A stretch of 64,000 nucleotides of DNA from Candidatus Thorarchaeota archaeon (GTDB taxonomy: Archaea; Asgardarchaeota; Thorarchaeia; Thorarchaeales; Thorarchaeaceae), in contig JBHLRZ010000003.1 in NCBI GenBank assembly GCA_048882045.1, forward strand, positions 136,192 to 200,191, in the 5' to 3' direction. This document shows, piece after piece, positions 3,612-44,300 of this stretch. The notes under the pieces were generated by a model. The model saw only the letters and a list, made by a program, of their open reading frames with translations, was not told the origin of the DNA and ran no database searches. Numbering within the stretch: position 1 is the stretch's first letter; every line of letters begins with the position of its first letter. The position numbers were made by a program, and so were the translations under genes.

Positions 3612-4931
3612 TCACAACCACTCGAATGCTTTATTCCATGTTACACTTGAACCTGAATAAGGATTCATGTAGACCGTTCTAAAGAATTCAGGGACAACAT
3701 CCTTCTCAATGGCCTTGAGAAATGAGGGATAGACATAGTTTGTGCGTCCGACATAGTATGTGAAGATGTAAGGTGCGAAGAAATTCGTCTTTCCATCCTT
3801 TGTTCGAGGACCTATGAAAGCGAGAGATGCTTCAGCAGTTTCACGTGTCCTAAATGTTCTCTCACAGATGTAATCAATCACTTCCTCTTCTGATTTTCCT
3901 TCATCATTAAGAAGGATCGCTGCATTGATTGAAGTCATCCTTCGGACAGGGTACAACGCTTCATATACCGCAACTCGAGATTCTTCTTCAGTAATTCCGA
4001 GGAAATCCTTAGCTGTGTCAGCAGTACCCTCAGATATGACACATCGGCCAGTATGTAGAGGTACTATTGAAAGTTCAAGATTTCCTGAATTCAAGTAGGC
4101 TTTCTCTCTCCACAAGTTAGACACATGGTGTTCATATTCATGATACAAGGTGGCTTGTAGTATGTCCTTGTTGAACTTTCTGTCGATATTGAACTGGTTC
4201 AGAGACTTGAATTCTCCTTTGTACCAGTTATACCCACCCCATGGTTCATCTCTCACAGCTTCATATTCAATCCCATTGTCAGGGACGGAAGCTCCCATTA
4301 CTGAATAGATCTTGGTCCTGAACTCCTGACCGATTTCAGAAGACCGTTGTTGAAGGTCGGTTTCAAGCAATCTTTTGAGAGCATCTCCAGTAACCTCGCC
4401 CTCCGTTGTGTAACGTTCTATCTTTTCGGACAAATCTGCACCTGGATAGTCAGCCATAACCTCAGCCAATTGCTCGTTGCCCTTGTCAATCTCACGCTCA
4501 GAAAACTTCTCCATTGGAATCTGAAAGAGACCCTCCACGAGTTCACCATAAGACATGTCTTTTCCATCCAACCAATCCACCACAACATTCAGCGAATGAA
4601 GCTCACCCATCATATACTCGAACCGGAGAGGATCATTAATCTCATCCCTCACCATATCAAAGGTCTGCTGGATTTCATAAACAATATCCGAAGATGCTTT
4701 GTCTGTGCTCTGTTTCTTGGGATGGAACTCAGGAGGTCCTGTATACGCATCAACAACACTCACTCCTGTAAGACGTTCTGTAAAATTCCCAACCTCTCCA
4801 CAGACCTTCACGAATCTCTCTGCAGCTTTCATTGTGACCAAGTGAGAAATGCAATGCTGACCTAAAGTGTTTGCCATTTGAGTCGTCACTCTTGGGAGTG
4901 TTTCCTTTTTGGACAGAGTATCGCTGTTCAC
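3612..4931 (-). CDS. Putative zinc metallopeptidase (gluzincin/DUF885-like); start may be ATG 4877
   Basis: LYHEYEHH (HExxH), downstream ISEGTA (third-ligand Glu) and YIFTYYVG. Confidence 0.65.
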   Translation of the reverse strand: MNSDTLSKKETLPRVTTQMANTLGQHCISHLVTMKAAERFVKVCGEVGNFTERLTGVSVVDAYTGPPEFHPKKQSTDKASSDIVYEIQQTFDMVRDEINDPLRFEYMMGELHSLNVVVDWLDGKDMSYGELVEGLFQIPMEKFSEREIDKGNEQLAEVMADYPGADLSEKIERYTTEGEVTGDALKRLLETDLQQRSSEIGQEFRTKIYSVMGASVPDNGIEYEAVRDEPWGGYNWYKGEFKSLNQFNIDRKFNKDILQATLYHEYEHHVSNLWREKAYLNSGNLELSIVPLHTGRCVISEGTADTAKDFLGITEEESRVAVYEALYPVRRMTSINAAILLNDEGKSEEEVIDYICERTFRTRETAEASLAFIGPRTKDGKTNFFAPYIFTYYVGRTNYVYPSFLKAIEKDVVPEFFRTVYMNPYSGSSVTWNKAFEWL

Positions 4932-4959
4932 AGACTATTGATTCCAAGAGAGAGAAGAT

Positions 4960-7089
4960 CTATCTGAACCCTCCTGACACACAGGCACTATGACATGCGC
5001 TGTGACACGCACTGTGACAGACACAGGCGCTATGGCAAGCACTATGGCATGCACTATGACAGGCATCATGTGAAACGCATGCACTGTGGCAGGCATCGTG
5101 AGATACACACCTGCTTGTACTCTCAATGAGGGGTCTAAGCGGCTCTGTGATTATGTTTCCTACACCTTCTAAAACACTACCAATAGTATTTGCTACATTA
5201 TTCATGATTTGCCCTGTTGTAGCAGCAACATCACCAACCACCTGACCGACTCCAGAGATAGTGTTTCCTGTTGCGTCAGCTAACTGAGAGAACCAGTCTG
5301 GTACTATTGGCGGAGATATTGCAGGTCCTGGTCTGGTGAACACATCACCTATGTGATCATGTCGTGGATGCATGTATAACCAGTACCAAGCCCATCCACC
5401 CCCATGATATCGACGGTTGAAGTAATAGTCCATCCGTCCATCCAGAGTGGGATAGCTCTCAAGCTCATCCCATGCACCTTCAATCATTTCATCGTGATTT
5501 GTCTTGGTAGCTTCAAAGTCAGCAGTCCAGGATTTTTCTTGAACCTTGTCAGCAAGTTCCTCGAGCATTGCATCTACCTTTTCAGGATCCAGTTCATTCT
5601 CAACAATTGCAGCTAAGAACAGTTCCTCGTAGTAAGTAAGGTCTTGAAATTGAAGGCCTGTGACTGAGAGTTTGAGTGGTTCTGTCGAGAGTACCCTGAC
5701 AGCTCCCTTTCTGACGCAAGACATCAGAATCATTGTCACCAAATCTTGTCGGGTTGTATTGACAAAGAACGCAGACTCAATTGGATCCAACTCTGCAACT
5801 GTGCCTGGTTCACCGAAAGTCTGGATGGAAATCTCCGGACTCTCGTACACATAGGTTGTATCATCCGCTTCCCATTTTGCACCATAGGTTCGAGTGACTC
5901 TTCTGTATCCGTAGTAAATGACGCCCAAACCAAAGAATATGACAAATCCACCTATTAGATAATTGGGATTGATCAATGGAGGGATGTACTCCTGAACATA
6001 GATGTCCACTGTGAATTGTAACCAATCTGTTGAGTTGAGGTTCGATGCACTGACTTGGAAGGATATTGTGAGCACCTGCGGAGTGTTAGCTGGTACGATT
6101 GAATATACTTGGTACCATGTTTCTCCGCCTGTGAGGTCACCAACATATGTTGTCACAGACCCTGATGTCAGTGTAAGATTCTCAGGAAGAGACATGGTTA
6201 TTATAACTTCCTCAAGGTCAGCATCTCCAAAGTTGTATATCGCCACTTGCAGATCAAATTCAGTTTCTGCATTTGCATTTACGTAGCTGACTGCACTATA
6301 TCCTAAAGCCCCGGCTTGCAAGAATGGTTCATAGAAACTCCAATTAGTGTAGTGCCAGACCCGAAAGTGAGTGTACGCATCCAAGTTGTTGTGTTCTAGA
6401 CTGACAGTGAAGTTTCTTGTAGCAGCACCTGCGTCATATGGATATGCAAGGAGATTGTTAACATCAAATGAATACTGAGTTCCGCCGTCCCAAAGACCTT
6501 GATTGTCATCAACTACATACCCTGCATATTCTGCTCCCTCAGGAGTTATTCCATGCGATGGTTCAATCCATGTGGAATTCATTACAATTGGATAGATCAC
6601 CTGAACAGCTTCATAATCAATGGGAATTTCCCACTGGACTGGAGCCCAATTGAAGACACCTAAATCGCCATAGGTTTCGGAGGTCGTCTTCTCAATGACT
6701 CTCTCTGTGCTAAAGTAACCAAAGACTACAGTGACTGTTTCCCCCTCTTGAGTTCTTGGCACCCAGTCCAGTCCATATCCATCCCAATATGTTGTAACAA
6801 GCAGATTATACTTCTCTTCTCCAACCTGCGCATATGCTCTATCAGGGTCCCAGATTCTGGTTTCCTGAATTCCTCTTAAGTCAAAACCGCCTAGTGAACC
6901 ACTCTCAACAGTAATTTCAATCCAGTAAGTAACATTGATTCTTCCATTTGGTAAAACGAAAACATCAACCAGTACGCTGTTTAAATTCACAACTGGACTC
7001 TGACTGGGAACACCTCCAGCAAAACATATGGGCACCACTGACAATATCAGTAGTCCAATGATCAGGTAATTGCCCAGTTTACGCTTCAC
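4960..7089 (-). CDS. Single-pass membrane protein (signal peptide, DUF2207-like and Ig/CARDB-like ectodomain) with C-terminal Cys/His repeat tail; putative radical SAM modification target
   Basis: N-terminal hydrophobic signal; VDVFVLPNGRINVTYWIEI start resembles DUF2207; TM LIGGFVIFFGLGVIYYGY; ends CVSHDACHSAC...CVSGGFR. Confidence 0.75.
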   Translation of the reverse strand: MKRKLGNYLIIGLLILSVVPICFAGGVPSQSPVVNLNSVLVDVFVLPNGRINVTYWIEITVESGSLGGFDLRGIQETRIWDPDRAYAQVGEEKYNLLVTTYWDGYGLDWVPRTQEGETVTVVFGYFSTERVIEKTTSETYGDLGVFNWAPVQWEIPIDYEAVQVIYPIVMNSTWIEPSHGITPEGAEYAGYVVDDNQGLWDGGTQYSFDVNNLLAYPYDAGAATRNFTVSLEHNNLDAYTHFRVWHYTNWSFYEPFLQAGALGYSAVSYVNANAETEFDLQVAIYNFGDADLEEVIITMSLPENLTLTSGSVTTYVGDLTGGETWYQVYSIVPANTPQVLTISFQVSASNLNSTDWLQFTVDIYVQEYIPPLINPNYLIGGFVIFFGLGVIYYGYRRVTRTYGAKWEADDTTYVYESPEISIQTFGEPGTVAELDPIESAFFVNTTRQDLVTMILMSCVRKGAVRVLSTEPLKLSVTGLQFQDLTYYEELFLAAIVENELDPEKVDAMLEELADKVQEKSWTADFEATKTNHDEMIEGAWDELESYPTLDGRMDYYFNRRYHGGGWAWYWLYMHPRHDHIGDVFTRPGPAISPPIVPDWFSQLADATGNTISGVGQVVGDVAATTGQIMNNVANTIGSVLEGVGNIITEPLRPLIESTSRCVSHDACHSACVSHDACHSACHSACHSACVCHSACHSACHSACVSGGFR
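4963..5109 (-). repeat. Coding tetrapeptide repeat (7x CHSA, 2x CVSHDA)
   Basis: 49 aa with 11 Cys and 9 His; all seven CHSA units use different codon combinations. Confidence 0.95.
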
Positions 7090-7113
7090 AGATTGACCCT
7101 CTGAACCAGTACT

Positions 7114-7506
7114 TCAATCTCCACGCTGAGCACGCAAGACATCAGCCTGAGCGATAGTGAGGTTAGATAAGTCAGCCTTAGCTGCAGCCCACTCCACAAT
7201 ATCTGGAAACTCCATAATCATCCCACCCCAGACAAGGTGGTAGACTCGCTTCAGTATCACACTTGCATCAGCTTCTTTCCCGACATACTCAAAGAAACAT
7301 TTCACTACTGCTGGTGTCTGTTCGCTCATGTCCTTAGGGACTTCAGTCCCAAATCCAGCGAACTCTACATCAAGCTCACGGAAAACGTCCATTCGTTCCC
7401 TGATTCCTGCCGCAATGACTGGGAGGTCCATGTCATAGGCACTGAAATGCATGATGAGTTTTTTCTTGCTAATTGTGCCATATGGTAGTTTGATTTCTGT
7501 GCTCAT
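7114..7506 (-). CDS. Hypothetical protein, first gene of the precursor operon
   Basis: 130 aa from ATG 7506; 24 nt upstream of the membrane protein gene. Confidence 0.65.
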   Translation of the reverse strand: MSTEIKLPYGTISKKKLIMHFSAYDMDLPVIAAGIRERMDVFRELDVEFAGFGTEVPKDMSEQTPAVVKCFFEYVGKEADASVILKRVYHLVWGGMIMEFPDIVEWAAAKADLSNLTIAQADVLRAQRGD

Positions 7507-7624
7507 TCGACCACACTCCACGATGATACTGTCAATGAATCAATACTGGGGACTCTTAAAACTTTCAGATTTCCAAACTCATCCATCCGAACCCTTAAGA
7601 CACCTAAGATTGGATTAGCGCTTA

Positions 7625-9055
7625 ATGACCTCAACTCGATCTGTTCCAGAATACAACTATTCATTGGAAGATCTGCACTGGATACCAGCATTCATTGAGG
7701 AGGTCAAGGACTTCTTCTTTGCAAGACCACAGGACAACCTCCTCATTCTAAGACCAAACAAGACGATGAGCCTGAATGAAACAGCCATGAGAATGTTGAA
7801 GAAACTTATGGACAAGGAGCCGATTGAGAAGATTGTTGCACACTTCGTGGATGCTGGAGGAGAAGAACAGAAGGTCATCAACGATTTGGCAGCATTTGTA
7901 GACGACCTTCGAAACATGACAATAGGAAACCAGAACATCTACAGCTACAGGACAGCAAAGATAGTCCCCTTCGGAGAGGGTGAGATCAAGTACCCTGTCT
8001 TGAGCGAGATTGCACTCACCTATCGTTGCAACAACAAGTGTAGATTCTGCTACGCATACTCTCCGTTCCGAGAGTCAGGAGAAATGACAACAGAAGAGGT
8101 CAAGCGAGTCATTGACATCATAGTTGATGATGCACACGTACCAAGTCTTTCCTTCACCGGAGGAGAGCCAACACTGAGAGAAGACCTCTTCGAGCTGATC
8201 ACTCATGCGAGAAACAGAGAATTACGAGTCAACCTGATCACCAATGGCATTCGGTGTCATGACAAGGCATTTGTCCAACGACTTGTCGATGCTGGATTGA
8301 ACAGTGCACAGGTTTCAATAGAGGGACCAGATGCAGAAACGCACGACTACATAGTCGGGATTCCTGGAGCCTTTGACAAGACTGTCCAAGGAATCAAGAA
8401 TCTACGAGAAACAGACATCTATACACATTGTAACACAACGATATGTCGTCCCAACTTGGACAAGCTCGAAGACCTTGTGGACTTTCATGCTGATGAATTG
8501 GGTTTGACATACTTCAGCATGAACATGGTCATCTACACAGGTACTGCAGCAAAGTTGAGAGATGAACTCCAGGTGAAGTACTCTGAGATCAGAGAGATCG
8601 TCAAACGAGTAAAGAAACGAGCGAACAAGAAAGGCATTCAGTTTGTCTGGTATGCACCTACTCCTGTCTGTCTATTCAATCCAATCGCTCATGGTCTCGG
8701 TGCGAAGAGTTGTGCTTGCTGTGATGGATTGCTCTCTGTTGATGCAGAAGGGGGCTTATTGCCTTGCTCGAGCTTCAGCGAACCTGTTGGTAACATATTG
8801 CACGAGGGTTTCGAGAAGGTATGGTACAATCGTGCCTCCCAGTTTTGGAGGGCGAAAGACTTTGCGCCAGAAGGGTGCAAAGCTTGTGACCACTTTGACT
8901 ATTGCTATGGTGCCTGTCCACTCTATTGGGATGTCCATGGATTTGATGAGATAAAGGAATACTGGCCTAAGAAGAGTAAAGTCAGAGAGAGAATTGATGA
9001 AGCCAGATTGAATCTGAGAAGACGCATCCGAGGAGATCAACACGGCATTACATAA
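7625..9055 (+). CDS. Radical SAM/SPASM peptide or protein maturase with N-terminal PqqD-like RiPP recognition element
   Basis: N-terminal LLILRPNKTMSLNETAMRMLKKLMDKEPIEKIV...DLAAFVDDL (PqqD/RRE pattern); CNNKCRFC; FTGGEP; SPASM CACCDG...PC and CKACDHFDYCYGAC. Confidence 0.92.
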   Translation: MTSTRSVPEYNYSLEDLHWIPAFIEEVKDFFFARPQDNLLILRPNKTMSLNETAMRMLKKLMDKEPIEKIVAHFVDAGGEEQKVINDLAAFVDDLRNMTIGNQNIYSYRTAKIVPFGEGEIKYPVLSEIALTYRCNNKCRFCYAYSPFRESGEMTTEEVKRVIDIIVDDAHVPSLSFTGGEPTLREDLFELITHARNRELRVNLITNGIRCHDKAFVQRLVDAGLNSAQVSIEGPDAETHDYIVGIPGAFDKTVQGIKNLRETDIYTHCNTTICRPNLDKLEDLVDFHADELGLTYFSMNMVIYTGTAAKLRDELQVKYSEIREIVKRVKKRANKKGIQFVWYAPTPVCLFNPIAHGLGAKSCACCDGLLSVDAEGGLLPCSSFSEPVGNILHEGFEKVWYNRASQFWRAKDFAPEGCKACDHFDYCYGACPLYWDVHGFDEIKEYWPKKSKVRERIDEARLNLRRRIRGDQHGIT

Positions 9056-9059
9056 GGGG

Positions 9060-10187
9060 TTGGCATCTATGAAAGTGACAGACCTGCTTAGTCCAGCTGC
9101 AATAATCGACATTGATAGATTAGATACCAACATCGAAGCAATGGCTTTGAAAGCTGAAGAGAACGGAGTGGGTCTCAGACCACACATCAAGACCCACAAA
9201 TGCATTGAAATTGGCAACCGTCAGAAGGAGGCTGGAGCCAAAGGCATCACGGTCTCTACACCTGCTGAGGCTCAAGCTTTTGCAGAAGCTGGTTTCACTG
9301 ACATAACATATGCAGTTCCACTTGCACCTGACAAGTTCGATACAATGCTTAGTATTTCAAAGAAGGTTCATCTGAATGTGCTTGTTGACAACATCACTAT
9401 AGTAGATCTGCTTGCAAAGTTCTCAACAGAAAATAATGCTGACTTCGGTGTCTTACTCAAGGTTAATTGTGGAAATTATCGGGTCGGAGTAGATCCGACA
9501 AGCCAGTCCGCTCTAAAATTGGCAGAAGAGATTTCACGCAAGCTGAACTTCGAGGGAATCCTCGCCCATGCAGGCCAATCGTATTCTGCAAGGTCAATTG
9601 GTGAGATCAAGAGAATTGCTGAGCACGAGCAAGATGTCATGATCAATTTCGCGAATTCACTGAGAGTGGAAGGTATTCAAACAAAAACCGTCAGTATCGG
9701 GTCTACTCCCACAGCAAGCTTGGCGGATTCCTTCAGAGAAGGAATTACGGAGATTAGACCTGGCAACTACGTTTTCTTCGATTACACTCAAGCTGCCTTA
9801 GGCGTCTGTGAGCTCAATGATATTGCTCTCACAGTTTTGGCGAGTGTAATCAGTACTTCACCTGGAAGGGTAATCATCGATGCTGGAGCAACAGCTCTCT
9901 CAAAGGACCTTGGTCCAACTCAGATCGATGAATCTGGCGGATATGGAAAGATCATCAAAGACTATCACACCTCCACCATTGAAGAAGAGTTCATTCTCAG
10001 CTCATTATCTCAAGAGCATGGTAAAATCAGTATAGCAACAGAACACAGTCTGAAACCGGGTGACGCTGTCAGGATATTTCCAAACCATTCTTGCCTCACA
10101 GTCAATCTCTATGATCAATACTATATTGTTCAAAATGATTCTGTGGTTGACAAGTGGAAGATTCAGCGTCAACGTCTTGCTTCATGA
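9060..10187 (+). CDS. PLP-dependent enzyme, D-threonine aldolase / D-serine dehydratase (DSD1) family
   Basis: RPHIKTHK (PLP lysine), SIGSTPT, EIRPGNYVFFD, SQEHG, PNHSC. Confidence 0.9.
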   Translation: MASMKVTDLLSPAAIIDIDRLDTNIEAMALKAEENGVGLRPHIKTHKCIEIGNRQKEAGAKGITVSTPAEAQAFAEAGFTDITYAVPLAPDKFDTMLSISKKVHLNVLVDNITIVDLLAKFSTENNADFGVLLKVNCGNYRVGVDPTSQSALKLAEEISRKLNFEGILAHAGQSYSARSIGEIKRIAEHEQDVMINFANSLRVEGIQTKTVSIGSTPTASLADSFREGITEIRPGNYVFFDYTQAALGVCELNDIALTVLASVISTSPGRVIIDAGATALSKDLGPTQIDESGGYGKIIKDYHTSTIEEEFILSSLSQEHGKISIATEHSLKPGDAVRIFPNHSCLTVNLYDQYYIVQNDSVVDKWKIQRQRLAS

Positions 10188-10203
10188 TTTCTAGAGTTCT
10201 GCG

Positions 10204-11094
10204 GTGTTTTTATACAACAACACGGAAGTGACCCATGAGGGTATACTGTTGAGTAGTGGGGATATACAACTAAATGTGCTGAAGCATATCGAGAGTCTAG
10301 AAGAGGGAATACCTCAGATCTATGGAAACATGGCTGTAACGGGTCTGAGTGACGTAAACGCAGAACTGTTCAACGGAATCATTTCGACTCAGATAGCTCT
10401 CGAAGTAGGGAACATGCAAGTTGAGGAGTCAGGTAATGTTCCGAGTCTCCGGTTCAACGCAGAACAACCAACTCTGATACGTTGCGGTGAGGGAGTTCTT
10501 GGAGGAGGTCTGCAGGACAGGATCATAGCTGAAAGCATGGTCATTGAAGGGAATCGATCTCTCAACGTGTTTTGCATTGAAGCAGGTCGATGGTCTGCAA
10601 AGACTGGAGAGTGGTTACATACAAACACACCTGTTTCAATGCGGCGGGCGATACTAGGGGGGCGAGATCAAAGGTATGTTTGGAGTGAGGTCCAGAGAAT
10701 TCTTGGATCTTGGGGTGTGCACTCAGGAACCAGTGCATTAGGAGAACTCTATGTGAATCATGGATTTGCATTCGAAAAGTTAGCTACGAGATTTGATTGG
10801 TCTGACGATGATGTGGGAATGATTGTCACAATTGATGGCAAGGTTCATGGAATAGAGATCTTTGGAGACAAGATGGGTCTGAGAAGAGACTATGCATCAA
10901 TCCTCAAAGAGAGTTATGCACCAATAGCACTACAAACTGCAAGTGGAAAATCGATGTCATATGAGGATGTCCACGACGCCATCAATGAATTCTTCTCCGA
11001 ACTCCATGCTGGTACTCGCTATGCACAGGTTGTGAACCACATGGAAATCTGGCTTATGCGTGTGCAGTATGAAAGTTTCACTTCAAACGATTGA
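10204..11094 (+). CDS. ARPP-1/DUF6569-like protein; C-terminus possibly frameshifted
   Basis: GEGVLGGGLQDRII, VFCIEAGRW, QRYVWSEV, GMIVTIDGKVHGIEIF. Confidence 0.65.
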   Translation: MFLYNNTEVTHEGILLSSGDIQLNVLKHIESLEEGIPQIYGNMAVTGLSDVNAELFNGIISTQIALEVGNMQVEESGNVPSLRFNAEQPTLIRCGEGVLGGGLQDRIIAESMVIEGNRSLNVFCIEAGRWSAKTGEWLHTNTPVSMRRAILGGRDQRYVWSEVQRILGSWGVHSGTSALGELYVNHGFAFEKLATRFDWSDDDVGMIVTIDGKVHGIEIFGDKMGLRRDYASILKESYAPIALQTASGKSMSYEDVHDAINEFFSELHAGTRYAQVVNHMEIWLMRVQYESFTSND

Positions 11095-11788
11095 CGATCT
11101 TGTGTCCACAGTAAGGACAAGTTTCCTCTTCACCAGGTAAAACAGGCGCGTCCAGCTTACCATCACAATTTGGACACTCAGTGATTGCCTTAGGAAGCTG
11201 TGATACGGCTTCTTGTGTATAGATTACACGTGAGTTCTCATCAATCACTCCCCTGAACTTTCCTGACTTTGATAGCTCTTTCATTGCGTCGACGATTTGT
11301 TCATCGGAAGCTTCTGTAACTTTCGAAATCTGGTCAAAGGTCATTCTTCTCTGAGCATAGAGAAGGTGCAGGAGACTCTCCTTTAATGACACAGCCTTGG
11401 GACTGACTATCTCATAAGCGGCTCGATCAAGATAGACCAGAGGTATACGACGAGTTGCAAGCTTCTCAGCAGCATCAGCGACTGTTTCAGAATCCACATC
11501 TAGCTCCTTAGCAGCAGCGTCGACACTGATTCTACCCTCCTTCTGGACAAGAGAAATCAAGTCTCCCGATACATCACCGATTCGAGCTTCACGAGTTCCT
11601 TTGGCAATCAACCAAAGACCAGCAATCAGCTCAGGAAGTGCAAGGATTGACCAGGCAATCATACCAGATGCAATCAGCGTCATGATTTCACCACCAACAG
11701 TCATCGTACTCTGATAGACAATCAGAGTCATTGCTCCGCACACAATCACGAGTATGATGCCTAGAAACTGCGCAAGTCTTGGATTCAC
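11078..11788 (-). CDS. 2-TM membrane protein with tandem winged-helix (PCI-like) domains and C-terminal zinc ribbon
   Basis: Two N-terminal TMs; GRISVDAAAKELDV; GKFRGVIDENSRVIY; CPNC...CPYC. Confidence 0.7.
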   Translation of the reverse strand: MNPRLAQFLGIILVIVCGAMTLIVYQSTMTVGGEIMTLIASGMIAWSILALPELIAGLWLIAKGTREARIGDVSGDLISLVQKEGRISVDAAAKELDVDSETVADAAEKLATRRIPLVYLDRAAYEIVSPKAVSLKESLLHLLYAQRRMTFDQISKVTEASDEQIVDAMKELSKSGKFRGVIDENSRVIYTQEAVSQLPKAITECPNCDGKLDAPVLPGEEETCPYCGHKIVNRLK

Positions 11789-12998: not shown

Positions 12999-13835
12999 CT
13001 ACAAGAGTTCCAAACCTTCTTTCCTGAGCTCCCTATAATTCCGGAGGTTGTCTGGAATGTAGGCATCCAGGAACACGTTCAGTATGTTCTCTGAATCTCG
13101 CTCGATTCCATAGCTCTTGAAGTACTTGAGAACATTCTTGATGTCTCGACGAAGCATAAGCTCAACCTTGTTCATGTCTGACCACTTGTTGACAACCTCA
13201 CCTTGTGGCATGTCAATGATCCATGGACTATCCTGCCACCAGAGGATGTTGTAACCACTAAGGTCCCCATGAACGTAATGTGCTTCGCTGTACATGAGAA
13301 GATACTGGTCTAGAACCTCGTTCATCACAGCCTCTGGATCTTCAAGCTCTACTTCACGGAGTTGTGGTGCTGGATTTTCTCCATCACCAATGAACCTCAT
13401 AGTGAGATAGTTTGCAACCCGTGAGATAGGAGTAGGAACCCTGACTCCAGCCTTGTAGCAGGCCTGAAGAATGTCGAACTCCTGAACTGCTATGTCCTCC
13501 ACAAGACCAAGAATCCATCTTGTCTTCTTTCCACTGGACTCACGGATGTATCCTTTGCCCATTGATAGCTTGTGGGGAGTAGCCCAGAGTCGATAGGCCT
13601 TTAGGATGATAGGATGGTCATTCCATGTAGCAAGAAAGATTGAGGCCTCCTTTCCTGCACTCATAGGATAAAGCACATCGTGAGCCAGTCCAAACCGGAT
13701 TGCATCATCACGGATCTCCTTGAACTTCGGTTCTTCGATTGTGGCTTTCCCGCAAGTACCACCTCGAATAGCATCACGTTTCTGATCAATAGCACTCCCT
13801 TTTGAGAGAGGATTGAACTTGTCGACACGACTCAT
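12999..13835 (-). CDS. RIO1-family atypical Ser/Thr kinase/ATPase (copy 2)
   Basis: AGKEASIF, HGDLSGYNIL, IIDMPQ, RRDIKNV. Confidence 0.9.
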   Translation of the reverse strand: MSRVDKFNPLSKGSAIDQKRDAIRGGTCGKATIEEPKFKEIRDDAIRFGLAHDVLYPMSAGKEASIFLATWNDHPIILKAYRLWATPHKLSMGKGYIRESSGKKTRWILGLVEDIAVQEFDILQACYKAGVRVPTPISRVANYLTMRFIGDGENPAPQLREVELEDPEAVMNEVLDQYLLMYSEAHYVHGDLSGYNILWWQDSPWIIDMPQGEVVNKWSDMNKVELMLRRDIKNVLKYFKSYGIERDSENILNVFLDAYIPDNLRNYRELRKEGLELL

Positions 13836-14626
13836 ATTCGTGCGACCTCCTCAGCGAAGTGCCTCTGGTTATGTGGAACATACTCTGACAGAAAGACATC
13901 GAGTATCTCATCAGGGTTTCGTCTAATCCCATACTTCTTGAAGTACGATAGGACATTGACTATGTCTCGTCTGAGTAATGACACTATGTTCTTCATGTCA
14001 GACCATGGTCCGACCTTGCAAGCCTGTGGCATGTCAATGATCCAAGGACTATTCTGCCACCAGAGGATATTGTAACTACTCAAGTCCCCATGCACATAAT
14101 TGGCATCCCGATACATGAGGAGATAATCGTCAAGTATCTTGTCCAATACAAGATCGGGTTCCTCAAGCTGGACATTTCGCAATTGGGGTGCAGGTTCTAG
14201 ACCGTCACCAATGAAACGCATTGTGAGATAGTTGCCCACTCTACCGATTGGAGTTGGTACTTTCATACCTGCCTTGAAACAAGCACTGAGTAGGTCATAC
14301 TCCTTTGCAGCCAAGACCTGCATTCTCCCAGGAGCGAAGAATCCTTTCTTTTTCTTTGCCTGAGATGTGTTCCAGAACCTGAATGCTTTGAGGATGATGG
14401 GATGATCCTTCCACATTGCCAAGAATATCGAGGCTTCTTTCCCTGCGTTCATCTGGTACAATATCTCAGTAGCCAAGCCAAACTTGACAGCGTCTTCCTT
14501 CACTTCATCCAGAGTGATCTCACTGATCTGGACTGTCCATCCTCTCTGATTACCTCGCTGGGCATCTCTCTTAATGGAGAGGGCATCAGGCTTTCTCGGA
14601 TTGAGCTTCTCAACCACTCCGGCCAT
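13832..14626 (-). CDS. RIO1-family atypical Ser/Thr kinase/ATPase (copy 1)
   Basis: AGKEASIF, HGDLSSYNIL, IIDMPQ; ATGA overlap with copy 2. Confidence 0.9.
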   Translation of the reverse strand: MAGVVEKLNPRKPDALSIKRDAQRGNQRGWTVQISEITLDEVKEDAVKFGLATEILYQMNAGKEASIFLAMWKDHPIILKAFRFWNTSQAKKKKGFFAPGRMQVLAAKEYDLLSACFKAGMKVPTPIGRVGNYLTMRFIGDGLEPAPQLRNVQLEEPDLVLDKILDDYLLMYRDANYVHGDLSSYNILWWQNSPWIIDMPQACKVGPWSDMKNIVSLLRRDIVNVLSYFKKYGIRRNPDEILDVFLSEYVPHNQRHFAEEVARI

Positions 14627-35324: not shown

Positions 35325-38300
35325 CTACTCCCTCAACCTCTCAGCATCCAAGCTCTTGATGAGCTCCTCGACCAGCTCTCGCGGAAGTTCCTTGGCTTGT
35401 TTCACGATGATGTCAATCTCGGAATAAGGTACACCCTTGTCCCGTAACTCTTTCTCCAATTCCTCTATCTCGAATGGACTAAGCATGTCGCTAGTGAAGC
35501 TGAAATCTTCTACAGGTACTCCAGGTTCCTCCGGTTCAACAGCTGGTTCGGTAGGTGTGAGCTCATCCTCCTCAGGTAGGAAGACTCGTTCGACCTCCTC
35601 CTCTGGTTCAGCGATGACCTCACCTTCCTCATCAACGAGAGGCTTGCTCACAACCTCTTTTTCGCCGGCAAGACGCCTGTCGGCTTCAGAGGCAACCTCT
35701 TCGAGGATATCCTCAACTGTCTTGCCTTCACGTCGAGCTGCACGGATGGCTTCCTGCATGATGACCTCTTTCACGAAGGCTGCCTGCTCACTCATCTTCA
35801 TCTTGGCAATATCAGCCTTGAACTCGTCAAGCTCCTGCTGGTTGAGATTGGTGAGTATGGACAACTGAATAAGCAGTTCACCTACTTCAGGTACTTGTAC
35901 TGGGATTGAATCCTCTGGTATCTCTTCAAGGGTCCGGGTAATCTCTAACTCAGAGAATGTGTCGTTGAACAAATCAGTAATGAGCACCCGTCGGCTTTTA
36001 ACATCCTTAACAGGCTTGGGGATCTTACCCTTCTTAATCACCTTGATTTGAGCGTTGATTTGACGCAATCGTTTTGGTACACTCCAGACTCTCATATAGA
36101 GGCCAATCAATAGTATCAGAAGGAAACCAACTGGAGTTCCAAAGGTGAACAGAGTCGTCATTGTTCGAGCAATCTCTGTTGGTTGAACATCAATACGTAA
36201 GGTTATGAATAATTCCTGAATGTCGGCTTTACCAAGCTTAAGTATTATTTGAGAGCTTCCTTCATCTGTTCCGATAAATGGTGAAGCTGCAGTGAACTCT
36301 ATGATGTAATAGCCGGGGCGTCCCGGATCTTCATAGGGTGTTCCGAATGATACTAGTTCAATGAAGGACAGTTCTTCATCCAATGAAAGGTTTGCATTTG
36401 TAATCACCGTTCCTGGTGCATGTCCAGGCCATTCGTCATTGTACCGCAATACTATACTACCAGATTCACCATAAAGGAGATCAAATGTAGTGAAGTCGGG
36501 ATTTGAGTATGTATTAGGACCAATGTTGATCTCGGCGAGGTCGATTGAAGTGGGCAAATCGATTATACGAATTAGTATCTTCACTTCAGCAATCGAATGA
36601 TTACCAAGCCAGAATCTGAATGTTATCTCATATGGGAATAACCTCGGATCAGATGTAGTATTCAACAACCATGGGTCGTTTGTGTCAAAGAAGAAGCTGT
36701 AAGAGCCATTCCCTAACTCTGTAACTGAGAAATAGGTCGGTGGACGAGTTGGTCCAAAAATATCACTCAGATCGAGCTGAGCATTAGCTAAGCCACCAAT
36801 AAAACCATCAGAATCATCTGTGTCGTTGTAGAAGAGCATTATGTTCATGGATTCTCCAATTGGAATTCTATAGTTTCCTGGATCATACGACGGATCTTCA
36901 TATTCTTCTTCAATATTGACTTCGATATTTGTCGGAACTGGTAGGACTTTGATTTGTATGATACTTGTAGCTTCTTGATAGTTGAGTTTCGAGAAAGTAA
37001 CGGAGATGGGAATATTGGTTTCACCAGACTGCAAAATAGTTGTGTCAAATGGTATCAGATAGTAACCTGTCAGAGGAATGTTAACTGCTTCTACTGACTC
37101 AAATCCAGGCACACTAAGCGTGACTGTTGCACCGGGAACTCCCTGGCCAAATGACACATCCCAATATGTGAAATTGAGATCACCTGACCATCCCCAGTAC
37201 AATTCACCTGTTCCCAAAGCTGGAGGAAGGACAACAGTCAAAATCCGTTTGATTGTAAGGGTGAGACGAGTTATAGAATCAGCGTATAAGGATGCATTAT
37301 CCCAAACCACTGCCCTAATTGTGATTGGCCATATACCATAACCAATTGCTGTAGTATCGAGGATGGCTGTGAAAATACCTGTTCGATTATTCGTGAAGGC
37401 TCCTTCAAGATTCGCCTCTGATATGAACCATCTAAGGTCTGCATAATAGAAAGAGCTGTTTCCTATAGCTGACATGTTTACACTCAGTTGAACCGGTTCT
37501 GAATAGACTCTGGTCATATCTTCTGTCGTTTCACCTGCGAGTTCTAGAGTTGTCGATGTCTGTTGAATTCTCAATTTGAATGAATTGGCTGCAGGTTCAT
37601 AATTGTCAAATATCGCAGTTAGTCGGACTGTATAGATATCAGGATCTAGAATCGTAGGACCGTTTGACGATATCAAATAGCTCCAATAACCAAGTGTACC
37701 ATTCGGAGCTAATGCAAAATTGAAGGTTTCAAGAGTTCCAGTAACTTCAACAACTCTAGATTCTGGAATTGGAACTCCAAATGCATCTTGTAGATACATT
37801 GTTACTAGAAGTTCGTCGCCTCTATTCAAGAGGGTGACTTCATCTATGGGTCGATCTTGAACCATTTCGCTTGCAAGACTCCTGACAACAAGGGTGACAT
37901 ATGCATACGAAGTCTTGTAGAAGCCATCATTATCTACAGCCCTGAATGAGATGACATAGGTACCGACATCAGCAATGATAGGAGTGATAGAGGTATCTAT
38001 CGAGGCGATATATTCTCCGCTGCCTATATGAGTTGTAAGCCCTCCATCAACTCCACCCTCATCCCAATACCACGTGACGTTGATTCCGGGTGTAAAGATG
38101 GGACCTCCGAAGAGTAATTCAGTGAAATTAACAGTGATGGTTTGACTCCCTTGCCAATCTACTTCATAGTAGTCTAGTTGAGGTGTAAGCTGAGTGTTAA
38201 TCTTCTGTACGACACCCGTCACATCAATGGTGGACATATTGGCGTAGTATGGTTCTATAGAGGGATTCCACATGACACTTAGACTAAACACGAAGGTTCC

Positions 38301-41300
38301 TGGGTTTAGTAAAGCATTCGTATCAATTTGAATTGTATAAGTCCCTGATGGTGCTTCAGTAATCCAGTAATTCAATCCAAGGGTCAGAGGTATTGTTGCG
38401 TGAGTGAATCCAATCACTGCGCCTGAAACTGGCCAGCCTCCATCAATATCTGATAGTTCGAATGTGATGTTCAGGAGTTCTCCGTAGGACGCGCTTTCAG
38501 CAGGGAGCTGAGCATATGACATCGTTCGTTTAATGGTAGTAACTCTGACAAAAGTCGAGTCATCAAAATAGTAGGGTGCCGAACCATCATCCCAATCGAC
38601 GAAGACAGTGACGTTGAAGTTAGTAACTAACACTCCACCAAACTCTGTCGAGTTGATCAATACATCGAATCCCTGCCCAACTGGAACGATGGAGTATTGC
38701 CCAGACGTAAGTAATATTCCTCCGGCCCAGATGTCAATATTGGTTGCAGTAATTGATGTTATTGCTTGTTCTCGACTCAGATCAAGATAAATGAAGGAAA
38801 ATTGTACAATGTCAAGATACTGTGTTTGGTGAGGAGAGGTTGTAATCTCTACATTGGTCTCTCTTCTAACAGTGTAAGTGTTCAACAATAATTCTGCATT
38901 ATCATGATATGGACTCTGTACAGGATTCCAGGTTGCTTGGACACGAATCTGAGTCAAACCAATTCCATCTAATGCAGTTGTATTAACATGAACAAGATAG
39001 TAACCATTACCCTCATTCACTATCGAATATTGTGTTCCGAAGGTAAGTGGAGTCGCTCCCTTAAAGACAAGGATTGACTCCGCTGAAATCCCATAAGAAC
39101 TGTCAGTATCAAGATATTGAATCCTGAAGGTCACGTTGTCAAGGTATTGAGATGGATCTGGAGAATCATCAAGTACTAAATCAGATGCTCTCGATCTCAA
39201 CTCAAAGAAGATGAAAGTATCGTCAGTACCATAAAATGGAGCCTGATTGGTATAGCTTGCTCGAATCTGAAGAGAATACCTGACTCCTACTGTAAACTCG
39301 GGGTGGTTGTATGTGTCAATTGTGAGTGTATAATATTGGAATGCAGGTTCCCATTGAACTGTGAAATACCAAACGCCAGCAGTAAGTATCTCGAGTGTAA
39401 CATCTCCAGTCCCATTGCCAATAACTCCAAGAGTATCAAGATCTTGGAAGTTTATCGTATAAACAAGAGTGTTGTTGTAGGGCACCTTTCCAATGGGTTC
39501 ACCAGACAGCAGTGTGACACGATATCTGACAGTGAAGGAGCGAGTAGCACTTGCATCAGGAATATAGAACTCGGCTTTAGTTAGCACAACACGAAGACTG
39601 TAGGTTCCTGGATTGGCGAAATAGGTAGTATCCAGGGTAACATTGTATTCCCCACCCGTGATTGGGGCCACAGAATAAAATCCACCAGGAATTTCGACCA
39701 AACCATTGTACAGGGTGACTACAGCACCAGAGATTCCAGTAACTGATGTACCTGTGACATCAGTCCAATTAAGGATGAACCATAAACTGTCACCATATGA
39801 AGTGGGAGCTGGAGATTGGTAGTCGAGTACTGTCTGCCTTGCGATAGTAGTGATAAAGATGATACGTCCTGTCCTATTAGCATAGAATGGAGCACTTGCC
39901 CAAACAACATCCAATGTAAAGGATTTCTGTCCTAGTGGTGCAGAAAACTGGCTTGTGTTGAATGAGAAGACAAATTGATGTGAAGAAAAGTTATAGTAGA
40001 ACGAATACTCACTCAGACTTGAACCTAATGTGAGATAGGTTGGATTATAGTCAATTGCCACACTTCCTCCACCTGTCACATCCTCATATGAAAAAATGAG
40101 TGTTGCATTCTCATTGTATGGTGTAGGAGTGGGTGGAACAATTGAAACGAGTGTGTCTCGTGGAAGAACTCGTACTGAGATCACATCAAAACGGTTCGTG
40201 TAGAACGGTGCAACACCATCAGTCCAGTTGATGTATACATTCATGTAGATAAGTCCGGTTTGTCCGAAAATTGTCGTACTGAATGAGATGGAATAATTGC
40301 CTGGTTGTGTAGCATCGTCAATTTCGAGAATCGTTACTTGACCAAGATCAACACTGACACCCTGGAAACTGACATAGATGTGGACATTGCCTCCTCCATA
40401 GCTACTATTTGTGATACCCAAGCCACTTGTTTCTCCATAGAAGAAGATGTATTCCACAGAACCAAGATATGGCGTTGGTTCAGATGCTTGTAGTAATGTG
40501 AGTTGAGAATCGATTCCGATGATGTTCACGGAAGTTGTTGCAGTCCGATTCTCATATTGCTGAGCTAGACCAGTCCAGTTGAAATAAATCAGAAAATTCT
40601 GGATGCCTTTGGGGAACTGAGATGCATCAATCTGGAGGGTATAGATACCTCCAGTATTGCTGACAAGAGCCGATGAAATCCAGTGAGTACCATTCCAAAC
40701 ATATTGCTGAATATTCGCTAAATCATTGATTCCAGATTTACTATCAAAATCATAGTACCTAAGTGAAATGTTTACAATTCCATTGAATGGCGTCGGTTCA
40801 GGAGCACTGACTACATTGAATATTGTAACGTGGGTTCTAATATTCACTTCAACATCACACGCAACCTGGAAGTAATTGGGATCATTCGTGAAAGTGAAGG
40901 TTATGACATAGAGCCCGAGGGGATCAGAACCAGTAGTTGTGAAGGTGACCTCATAGCGAGACCCGTCCCAAACAACATTTACTGCAGTTGAGCCTGGCCA
41001 TCCAGTTACTGTCGGAATCACACTTGGAATTGGTACTCCGTTGTCAAGATCCGTATAATCAATATACATCACATGTACATTACCAACCGGGATGTCAACT
41101 GAAATCGCAGATGGCTGGGCATCCGTATGAATTCTAGTGACTATAACAGTAATGATGACACTCTTCTCAGTATATCCATCCGCATTAGCAGTGAGTGTTA
41201 TTTGATGGCTACCTACAGATAGTCCAACAACACCAATCTCAACATCGTAATTACCATTGGAAACATGGACAAAGCTAATCCAACCCGTTGATGCAGTGAT

Positions 41301-44300
41301 TGTTGCTGTGGTTATCCCAACTCCTCGATCACGATCTTCATAGAATAAGGTTACAGTCACGTTGAAGTTTAGTGGAGTAGATACTGTATAGAGGTTTGAA
41401 GTGAGATCACTATCTGCTGGTGAATAATCAAAGTTGATGACAAACTGTGTTGATTGATAGAGAGAACTGGTCGGGTCAATCTGAACAGTTATCGAATATG
41501 CACCTTCTGAGAAAAGGGAGGCGTCGATAAGAATGTTATAGATACCATTTCCCAACGGTGTGATTGTTGCGGTTGGATATCCTACAATAGATATGTCAGA
41601 GGACAGTCCATCAATAGTATCACCATAGAAGCCTCCGGGTTCGGAAACCTCAACCGTGATGTTCACTGTGAAATCATCACCATTCGGGAAGTGTAGACTG
41701 CTTGGATTGTTATATGCGCGGATAGAAATGCTCCTTATTGTGATTGCGAAGATATAGTTTGATGGCGTTTGGTAGATGGTACTGGACATTGTGAAGATAA
41801 CTGTAACAGATGTCCCACCGACAGACCAACTGCTTGTATCTAACAAAATGTCATAACTTCCAAAGTCTGCGAAACTCGTTGTCCAATCAAGACGGATGTT
41901 CGACACAGCCCCAATTGGCACTGCTCCACCTGTATCCAAGTCAGTAAGAACAACAGTAAGAGGAGTAGAGTTCCCATAGGGTGTTGTCATATCTCCGACG
42001 ACATTTATCGATGTGTAGTGAGCTCGAATTGTGATTGTGAATGTATACTGTATTGGTGGATAATAATCCGAATTAGCCATGACCAAAGTAAGATTGACTT
42101 CGTGATCTCCTACTGACCATGTATCAGTCGTCAAAGTCATAGCATACGAAAACAGAGAGCTTCTTTCCTGTGATCCTCCAGCATATGTAAAGATGAAGCG
42201 GTCGACATTGGATATGTCAGGAATCGTACCAAAATCAAGGTCTGCGAGTAAGACCGTCATTGGAGTGTTTTCTCCATATGGCACAATAAAGTCTCCAGAT
42301 GCTGACACTGCGGTGTAATGAGGTCTTAGAGTGAAGGTGATGTCCACACTGTCCATCAAGATGAATGAACCTGGTTTTGACGCATTGATTGTGTATGTAT
42401 GAAGTCCAATTGACAGTGCGGTTGTTGATATTGAGATATTGTACCAACCTACTCCCTGTGCTGTAACTGTGACTGGACTTCCATCATCAAAGGTGATTGT
42501 AGCTCCTGAGATTGGAGCACCAGAGAATGAATCATAGTAGAAGAGAGTGGCAGTGAATGGAGAATCCACTGGAGTTGTTTCAATATAGGCATAGGAGAGA
42601 TCTGTTGGATGATAGAGGTCAAGTTCAAAGTAATTTGATGCATCATTGTAGAAGGGATGTTCAGAACTAATCTGTATCCTCCAACGTTTATTATCTTGCA
42701 AATCAGTTGTATTGACCGTAATTCCATATTCTCCTGCACCGAAATCATTGAATTGAAGGGTTGTAGGTGTTCCTAAAATAGTCCAGTTCATGGTCACTTC
42801 GGAGCCGGTTATTCCAGAATGTAAAATATCGTCTGTGAGCTCGACCCTTATGAATATGACATCATTAACAGTAGAGTCAGCAATTCCTCCACCAACAGCA
42901 TCTAATGGAGATAAAACAGAAAGGGAGGCATCATGCTGGACTATGAATTTCCGCTCATACATTCCAGTCATGGCACCTACAGAAATGCCTGAGTCATTAT
43001 AATAAGCAGAAACGGTCCATTCTCCAGCCATGGCTGTTACATCTGCAACCTTCTTGACAGAGGATTCAGGTGATTCTTGCGCAACTTCTGAACTCACAGA
43101 ATAGAAGAGATTTGTATTGTAGATATTCTGATATTCCGCAGCAATCCAGGCACCACTCCGAATTCCATTTGAAACTCGCACCTCGTCCATCCGGCCATTA
43201 AGGTACGCCCGGGCTCCAGCTATCTGGTCAATCCAAGAACCTCCAATTCCCCAAGAGCCATCATAATAGAGTTGTGCAGTAGCGAGAGCTCCATATGACC
43301 CAAATGTATCATCAACTGCTCGGACATAGATCTTGTTGTTTTCAGGTGTTGTGGCATCCATTGTACAAGCATAATAATACCAAGTGTTCGCCTGCCATGA
43401 GGTTTGAGAAGTGTACTTGTATTTCTGGCCTGATGCATCATTTTCCACTTTGAAAACCAAACTTCCTGTTGGTGCAGACGAAGTGTAGTCTGATCCAACC
43501 AAAGCGACGTGCATATCATTATCTCCATTGAGATACTTCTCAAAGAGCAGTCTTGTGGTAGATGAGAAACTATTGTGAGATATGTCAAGTCTGAACCATC
43601 CAGAAATAGTGACGCTTCCAGTAGGTTCAAGATCTTCAGTGTTTAAAATCTCAATCCAATCGTCTGTACCATCAAAGTCTTGCCCATACCCTACAATTCC
43701 ATTTGTTATCACATTTCCACGCTGTGAACCATCGTAATCACTAGATGTTGCATCTTGATGTACACCCGTGGTCTGCTCATCAGTAGTACTGTCATCAAGG
43801 TGCCAGACTGCTGCAAAGCTGTTGGTCCACACATCTTCGGAGTTCTCTTGAGATCCAAGCATTGAATTACCATAGTACATAGTTATGACAGTGTTCACAG
43901 AGCCTGTAAGGTTGGTCTTGACCCAAGCAACGAGATGAGCCTGCGTAGGGCTATAGTTTTGATCGAAGAGTTCTATCTCATGGGAGAGAACATTTCCTCC
44001 AGATACGAAGACAATGTCATCTCCATCGCTTTGCACCTTTGTCTTCAAATCTGTGTCTATGATATCGATTAGAACAGGGAAATTCTGTAGGCTCTGTCCG
44101 AGGTGTCTTGAACGGTCAACAGTGAAGTCCTTTCTGTAAGCAAAGGATTGAAGTAAATGAGAGGTTGCACCTGCGGTTGTATTTGTTGTTGAATACCATG
44201 TCGCTCCAGTGGGATCTGTAAGGGTAAAGGTGGTTGTTGCTCCAGTTATCCATGTACTTGTTGTTCTAAACATCATTTCATCCGTAAGGTCGAATATTGC

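Follow-up and report, generated by a model that had tools for sequence, protein, structure and literature searches.

A radical SAM enzyme paired with the conserved Cys/His tail of a membrane protein in Thorarchaeota and bacteria: a candidate for modification in place

The window analysed here, a stretch of 64,000 nt from contig JBHLRZ010000003.1 of a Candidatus Thorarchaeota archaeon, was found to contain at positions 3612-9055 a gene for a membrane protein that ends in a repetitive cysteine/histidine (Cys/His) tail, together with a divergent gene for a radical S-adenosylmethionine (rSAM) enzyme. The pairing of enzyme and tail was found to extend across phyla, and the enzyme probably modifies the tail in place on the intact protein (at a probability of about 0.6). 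The chances are about even that the pair belongs to a post-translational system widespread among Asgard archaea and anaerobic bacteria. An rSAM enzyme would there introduce successive crosslinks (Cys-Ala thioether or His-Ala) along the cytoplasmic tail of a surface membrane protein that stays intact, in two co-varying versions named after their repeats (CHSA and CACA). The result would be a tethered macrocycle for metal binding or signalling and no released peptide. A preliminary description, drawn from the sequence without database searches, had proposed an archaeal membrane-anchored system of this kind, with possible release of the tail by a neighbouring peptidase. Its gene coordinates were all confirmed on re-examination. 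The term family is used below for the Thorarchaeota-family genomes around the genome of the window.

Results

The Cys/His tail

The membrane protein of 709 aa (4960-7089, minus strand) was found to end, as first described, in a Cys/His tail covering residues 661-709 (4963-5109, minus strand), which is the proposed substrate and consists of (CHSA)n repeats with two CVSHDA units and an SGGFR end. Its 49 residues contain 11 Cys and 9 His, that is, 11 of the 13 Cys of the whole protein. The repeat does not arise by chance, as seven C-H-x-x-C units were counted against at most two in 20,000 shuffles, and nothing with more than one CH[SD]AC was found in any frame of the rest of the genome.

Across 30 family genomes the tail was found to be identical in 25 and to differ by a single residue in 5, whereas the whole membrane protein is 56-81% identical within the family. 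In the same genomes, codon pairs of the tail showed 53.5% synonymous against 0.7% non-synonymous differences, and the 49 codons preceding it showed 45.9% and 25.9%, respectively. This codon pattern, together with the invariance of the tail beside a diverging body, shows a coded peptide under strong purifying selection and not a repeat produced by DNA slippage. A DNA tandem repeat or an assembly artefact was ruled out by the mixed codons of the tail and the presence of the same peptide in 30 genomes, and the open reading frame (ORF) on the opposite strand (4935-5126) was set aside as a shadow of the tail.

The spacers were also found to be conserved. CHSA units contained Ser in 565 of 586 and Ala in 582 of 586 cases, and Ala directly preceded 775 of 865 Cys near the C-termini of CHSA-type proteins and 395 of 573 near those of the CACA type. 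A C-x-x-A pattern fits both the (CHSA)n and the (CA)n tails.

Linkage of enzyme and tail across genomes

In the family, the rSAM gene was found next to the membrane protein gene, and divergent from it, in every contig showing both, a pairing that taken alone could be explained as synteny. The linkage was therefore followed from both sides. When bacterial loci were selected through the enzyme only (80 loci, most of them from Chloroflexota and some from Armatimonadota), 61 contained a CHSA-tail protein, whose gene in most cases immediately precedes the enzyme gene and frequently overlaps it. Where 2.5 kb of flank was present on both sides, 47 of 55 loci carried the tail protein, and in the 8 exceptions a long ORF at another place in the genome encodes the tail. 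Starting from the tail, 11 distant tail proteins were collected by profile search, 10 of which could be judged, and an rSAM/SPASM gene lay within two genes in all 10. The association of rSAM enzymes with Cys-tail proteins anticipated by the preliminary description thus holds across phyla.

A sister form with the same protein body and a (Cys-Ala)n tail was carried by 68 of 80 loci picked by their enzymes (23 of 25 with full flanks). A quick tree separated the enzymes of the two tail types (SH-aLRT 99) and placed Asgard genomes in both groups. Outside Thorarchaeota, the most similar enzymes come from bacteria (Chloroflexota, about 50% identity), so that the label archaeal had been too narrow.

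Some loci departed from these two patterns. The protein P0133 (L135:6001-7764) has a hybrid tail with CHSA/CHSN repeats first and a CACA run last, bridging both types, and in the tree its enzyme falls among those of the CHSA side, at the end of a long branch. The CACA-type loci L032 (G037) and L143:5387-6505 were found to contain a second, degenerate rSAM-like gene near the tail protein, which was not seen at the CHSA locus of the window. One enzyme of the CACA clade (L034:6758-8086, G047) had no tail protein within the surrounding 16 kb.

The radical SAM enzyme

The enzyme of 476 aa (7625-9055, plus strand) was found to contain an N-terminal RRE (recognition element of RiPPs, peptides that are made by the ribosome and modified after translation), a CxxxCxxC core and a SPASM region. 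The core passed the PF04055 cut-off at 98 bits, with C135, C139 and C142 invariant. The RRE, of the PqqD type and covering about residues 30-99 (7712-7921, plus strand), passed PF05402 marginally (26.1 against a cut-off of 23.4 bits) and matched TIGR03859 under its cut-off (E 2.5e-5). The predicted structure of residues 30-99 shows three strands followed by three helices, which is the RRE topology, at a predicted local distance difference test score (pLDDT) of about 80-96. Profile match and predicted order of strands and helices thus agree on the PqqD-like segment proposed earlier.

The SPASM region (8669-8917, plus strand) contained seven invariant Cys (C349, C363, C381, C418, C421, C427 and C431) and passed PF13186 at 23.7 against a cut-off of 21.5 bits. 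One of these Cys lies upstream of the usual motif, within WYxPxxxC, and none follows the Cx2Cx5Cx3C motif; the distal Cys is likewise missing in 67 of 72 CHSA-type enzymes. The domain had been described as a full SPASM, which is borne out for the domain itself but not for the canonical set of Cys.

The nearest solved relatives were found to be peptide maturases, with SkfB as the best, followed by PqqE, SuiB and CteB. The enzyme was compared with NCBIfam through the best 25 of 93 matches plus TIGR04115 and TIGR04463, and no curated rSAM family cut-off was reached among these. For StsB, the family score was 108 against a cut-off of 625 bits, and for PapB 91 against 340 bits.

The His residues of the tail would also allow a triceptide-type link, in which C2 of His would be joined to the beta carbon two residues on (H-x-A or H-x-N) and the Cys would be left for metal. 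This would be a subset of modification in place that competes with thioether formation, and it is improbable. The tail of the window does contain nine H-x-A motifs in which the middle position varies (S, D) and the third is Ala or occasionally Asn, and HaaB joins C2 of His1 to C-beta of Ala3 in HAA (PMC11499958). However, these motifs are largely absent from the homologous CACA form, where His is rare or missing although its enzymes have the same architecture and Cys pattern; and among the best 25 of 93 NCBIfam matches the only cyclophane-synthase families were WgkB and HxsC-type models, both far below cut-off.

The membrane protein and its domains

The membrane protein was assigned to a distant DUF2207 type on the basis of its predicted structure, hydropathy, bacterial orthologues that pass the Pfam DUF2207 model and atlas neighbours that include DUF2207 clusters. 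Two of the bacterial orthologues scanned with PF09972 scored 27.7 and 32.9 against a cut-off of 24.4 bits, and the protein of the window itself gave no match to this model. The predicted structure (pLDDT 81 overall) contained a hydrophobic helix at residues 2-23, followed by two beta domains, a transmembrane helix and a folded domain up to about residue 585. Residues 608-702 form a low-confidence stretch, a helical linker and then the tail.

The first putative extracellular domain (residues 30-250; 6340-7002, minus strand) resembles the N-terminal domain of DUF2207. Its best structural match was 6c26_1 (Z 15.3, root-mean-square deviation 3.1, 185 aligned residues, 10% identity), and the fold is that of the luminal domain of ribophorin I/Ost1 and the N-domain of M1 aminopeptidases, a likeness of fold only that shows no function. 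In a Foldseek search over the full-length protein, ribophorin I was ranked first, which is notable given the link between Asgard archaea and eukaryotes; the resemblance may merely reflect a common fold. The second domain (residues 260-368; 5986-6312, minus strand) would be a CARDB/DUF11-like immunoglobulin (Ig) fold, with Pfam matches under cut-off and Z of about 12 to many Ig-like domains.

The transmembrane helix was placed at about residues 375-397 (5899-5967, minus strand) by hydropathy and at 375-401 in the model. Basic residues follow it, so that by the positive-inside rule residues 400-709 would be cytoplasmic and the tail would lie on the same side as the soluble rSAM enzyme. The earlier term single-pass holds if helix 2-23 is a cleaved signal peptide, and the tail would be cytoplasmic in both cases. 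The folded cytoplasmic domain (about residues 430-585; 5335-5802, minus strand), identified by profile search, was found to be common to CHSA-tail and CACA-tail proteins, and its relatives matched TIGR04222 and DUF2207_C weakly, both under cut-off. The fold-search lists were filled by ectodomain matches and hardly represent this domain. DUF2207 proteins (PF09972, PF20990) share the N-terminal domain and weakly the cytoplasmic domain, but the Cys tail and the rSAM partner are confined to the present subgroup.

Search for a precursor and other cassette members

No conserved small ORF was found near the enzyme across the loci, where the largest cluster comprised 3 loci and the tail stood on long ORFs; the earlier statement that no free-standing small precursor is visible can therefore be extended to the relatives. 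The gene clusters of the cassettes contained no conserved protease or exporter, and no other conserved substrate gene was found in them.

Two further genes recur. The first encodes a 236-aa protein with two transmembrane helices, a winged helix and a zinc ribbon (11078-11788, minus strand) and is a possible accessory member. It was mostly found 0.03-4.4 kb from the rSAM gene while the intervening genes change, and its profile matched at 95% (E 2.6e-8) a 167-aa protein of 36 bacterial cassette loci, a match that rests on small alignments and generic domains. By these profile and neighbourhood data it is a better candidate for a third member than the peptidase described below, though its domains are generic. 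The second, an unannotated 400-aa coiled-coil protein, directly follows the rSAM gene in most CHSA cassettes outside Thorarchaeota (68 loci, for example L039:7624-8799), and a hidden Markov model search found no counterpart in the genome of the window.

The neighbouring peptidase

A DUF885-like protein of the metallopeptidase type (3612-4931, minus strand) was found downstream of the membrane protein, with HEYEH at residues 264-268. Its atlas neighbours are named DUF885-like at 0.96 and 0.83, and there was no Pfam match (PF05960). The HExxH motif reported earlier is present, but the reported spacing of 28 nt applies to the first GTG; the true start is probably 4877 or 4832 (M19 or M34), because relatives match only from residue about 25-37, and these starts give 82 and 127 nt.

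This gene invites the reading that the modified tail is cut by the adjacent peptidase and released as a RiPP or a signal, which is very improbable. Besides having the HEYEH motif, it was found on the same strand, at most 2.3 kb downstream, in 28 of the 31 family genomes. More exactly, 10 genomes have it next to the membrane protein gene and 18 at 0.4-2.2 kb, 2 have it on another contig, and in 1 (G028, 94% complete) it was not found; at the three non-adjacent loci inspected, the membrane protein gene is followed by a phosphoesterase-like gene. Direct adjacency is thus limited to 10 of 31, the gene stands on a separate contig in G030, G036 and G037, no match was found in 175 loci outside Thorarchaeota (many of them short), there are Asgard genomes with the peptidase in which no such pair was found, and unrelated neighbours (Usp, DUF6159) share the family synteny in the same manner. 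DUF885-like proteins are not known to act as RiPP leader peptidases. The release proposed in the preliminary description is accordingly not supported, and by its distribution the peptidase is probably a syntenic bystander outside the system.

Other genes of the locus

The gene order was found to be peptidase, membrane protein and a 130-aa gene on the minus strand, followed by a gap of 118 nt and the rSAM gene on the plus strand. The divergent intergenic region (7507-7624) has exactly the 118 nt first given, provided the small upstream gene starts at ATG 7506. This 130-aa gene (7114-7506, minus strand) sits inside the pair directly upstream of the membrane protein and had gone unmentioned. It was found in 28 of 36 family genomes at 67-91% identity in a constant position and is better conserved than the membrane protein. 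No match was found in 24 other Asgard genomes and no family match was obtained, so that it is family-only among the genomes searched. As a Cys-poor and family-restricted gene it was ruled out as a precursor or a universal component.

On the other side, a pyridoxal phosphate-dependent aldolase/D-serine dehydratase-like gene starts 4 nt past the rSAM gene and is followed by an ARPP-1 domain gene (9060-11094, plus strand); both vary among relatives and are probably unrelated to the system. Further along, the window contained two giant ORFs in tandem (35325-44879, minus strand, 3184 aa; 45024-57242, minus strand, 4072 aa) and two paralogous genes in tandem at 12999-14626 (minus strand), conserved in several relatives, which by motif we take to be RIO-type kinase-like. 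An RNA search listed no RNA holder. A scan for sigma-70 promoters and terminators gave counts near shuffle levels, sigma-70 being the wrong promoter type for an archaeon.

In two relatives the genes of the locus were interrupted, by decay or assembly error. Genome G018 (L009) contained one in-frame TAG in the membrane protein gene and three in the peptidase gene, and in genome G034 (L030) the membrane protein gene was split and a TAA lay within the rSAM match.

Comparison with known systems

The closest described parallel is CrpC/CrpA of Methanococcus voltae (TIGR04463), in which ranthionine thioethers were shown on a protein (PMC13692751, 2026). CrpA is a protein of 28.8 kDa with a 17-residue motif repeated ten times and C-X-X-Q/D motifs, with no membrane mentioned, and CrpC has an AuxI with three Cys and an AuxII with four (PMC13692751). 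Both pairs consist of an archaeal RRE-rSAM-SPASM enzyme beside a protein with C-terminal Cys repeats, but the repeats are unrelated, the enzyme of the window scored 45 against the TIGR04463 cut-off of 525 bits, and the auxiliary Cys pattern is different. In the quinohemoprotein amine dehydrogenase system, the RRE-bearing rSAM enzyme QhpD forms intraprotein thioethers in the gamma subunit QhpC (PMC13692751). QhpC differs as a small enzyme subunit with an N-terminal leader, Cys-Asp/Glu links and no membrane-protein tail, and no dehydrogenase genes were seen at the present loci.

Membrane proteins of TIGR04222 have C-terminal Cys-rich tails that were proposed, without test, as substrates of MNIO (DUF692) enzymes (PMC12452194, 2025). 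They resemble the present proteins in combining Cys tails with a linked modifying enzyme and in the weak match of the cytoplasmic domain among relatives (12-19 bits against a cut-off of 43, and none for the protein of the window). They differ in the enzyme superfamily, the linked enzyme here being an rSAM enzyme, and in tails that are Gly/Ser-rich and predicted to be periplasmic; the present proteins moreover have a large DUF2207-like ectodomain. The CXXX-repeat system (TIGR04115, with targets TIGR04117/PF27846) likewise places Cys at every fourth residue beside an rSAM gene. Some tails of relatives matched TIGR04117 (E 1e-4; 19-22 against a cut-off of 50 bits) and PF27846, and the tail of the window gave no TIGR04117 match. 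The targets of that system are free small peptides (model of about 98 aa), and the enzyme of the window scored 35.6 against 350 bits for TIGR04115.

SkfB, CteB, PapB, StsB and HaaB share the architecture of RRE, rSAM core and auxiliary clusters, but act on short leader-bearing precursors and are 16-20% identical to the enzyme of the window. StsB links alternating Cys to Gly (PMC10288494). Cys-Asp chemistry of the PapB type (CX3D) was rejected, as the spacing is not conserved: two CX3D were found in the window, and CX2D in Chloroflexota. In general, sactipeptide and ranthipeptide systems have a short leader-core precursor and a linked protease or exporter, neither of which was found here. Literature searches on the motifs, on Thorarchaeota RiPP rSAM enzymes and on DUF2207 returned no description of the pair, with subscription literature mostly outside their coverage.

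Discussion

From the architecture of the enzyme and its linkage we infer the binding, modification, chemistry, topology and biological role as follows. The RRE-rSAM-SPASM enzyme would be dedicated to maturing the cytoplasmic tail of the DUF2207-type membrane protein encoded beside it. The enzyme would bind this protein through the RRE, generate 5'-deoxyadenosyl radicals and modify the repeat while it is still attached. The likeliest chemistry would be thioether crosslinks from Cys to carbon, for which the Ala at the third position after each Cys is a candidate acceptor; a Cys-Ala ladder is favoured because C-x-x-A is common to both tail types. Thioether formation is nevertheless tentative overall, somewhat short of an even chance, and another radical chemistry is less likely again. 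The product may be a rigid, His-lined element beneath the membrane, probably serving as a metal-binding or protein-docking end of the surface protein.

Several points weigh against this proposal. The linkage, as a matter of gene neighbourhood, shows a stable cassette and is no proof of substrate recognition; the tree does not prove recognition either, because linked genes move together and related loci are not independent. The pair, divergent in the Thorarchaeota family, is separated in some bacteria. When archaea and bacteria are compared, no leader-like motif is conspicuously conserved ahead of the tail. The SPASM pattern is unlike that of CrpC, since AuxI could be closed by the additional upstream Cys and AuxII is without its distal Cys. 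The upstream Cys weighs against thioethers in particular, because enzymes that form them are thought to leave the AuxI site open, and the auxiliary pattern leaves the chemistry undecided. Finally, Cys/His repeats are classic metal ligands without any modification.

The last point leads to the most serious alternative, in which the tail would stay unmodified and its Cys and His would serve as ligands of Zn, Cu, Ni or Fe-S clusters. The rSAM enzyme would then be a partner that docks on the tail, loads clusters or takes them up, or has a different substrate within that membrane complex. Invariant Cys and His separated by small residues are well suited to binding metal, nearly all CHSA-type enzymes are without the distal SPASM Cys, whose site a tail Cys could fill, and the zinc-ribbon membrane protein and the 400-aa coiled-coil protein of the cassettes suggest a complex. 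Against this stand the peptide-binding RRE and the intact SAM-cleaving motif of the enzyme, the absence of another conserved substrate gene from the cassettes, and a conservation of the Ser/Ala spacers that seems tighter than metal binding alone usually needs. An unmodified ligand array is therefore rather unlikely, though well ahead of a released peptide, and modification of the tail in place is preferred.

In the published literature found, rSAM thioether formation on whole proteins is documented for QhpC and CrpA, neither of which is described as a membrane-protein tail. The present pair offers a strictly conserved candidate substrate of 49 residues together with a soluble enzyme. If the proposal is true, RiPP-type chemistry would be extended to membrane-protein tails of both bacteria and Asgard archaea, the crosslink itself (Cys-Ala or His-Ala) could prove to be new, and a first handle would be gained on the function of DUF2207-type proteins.

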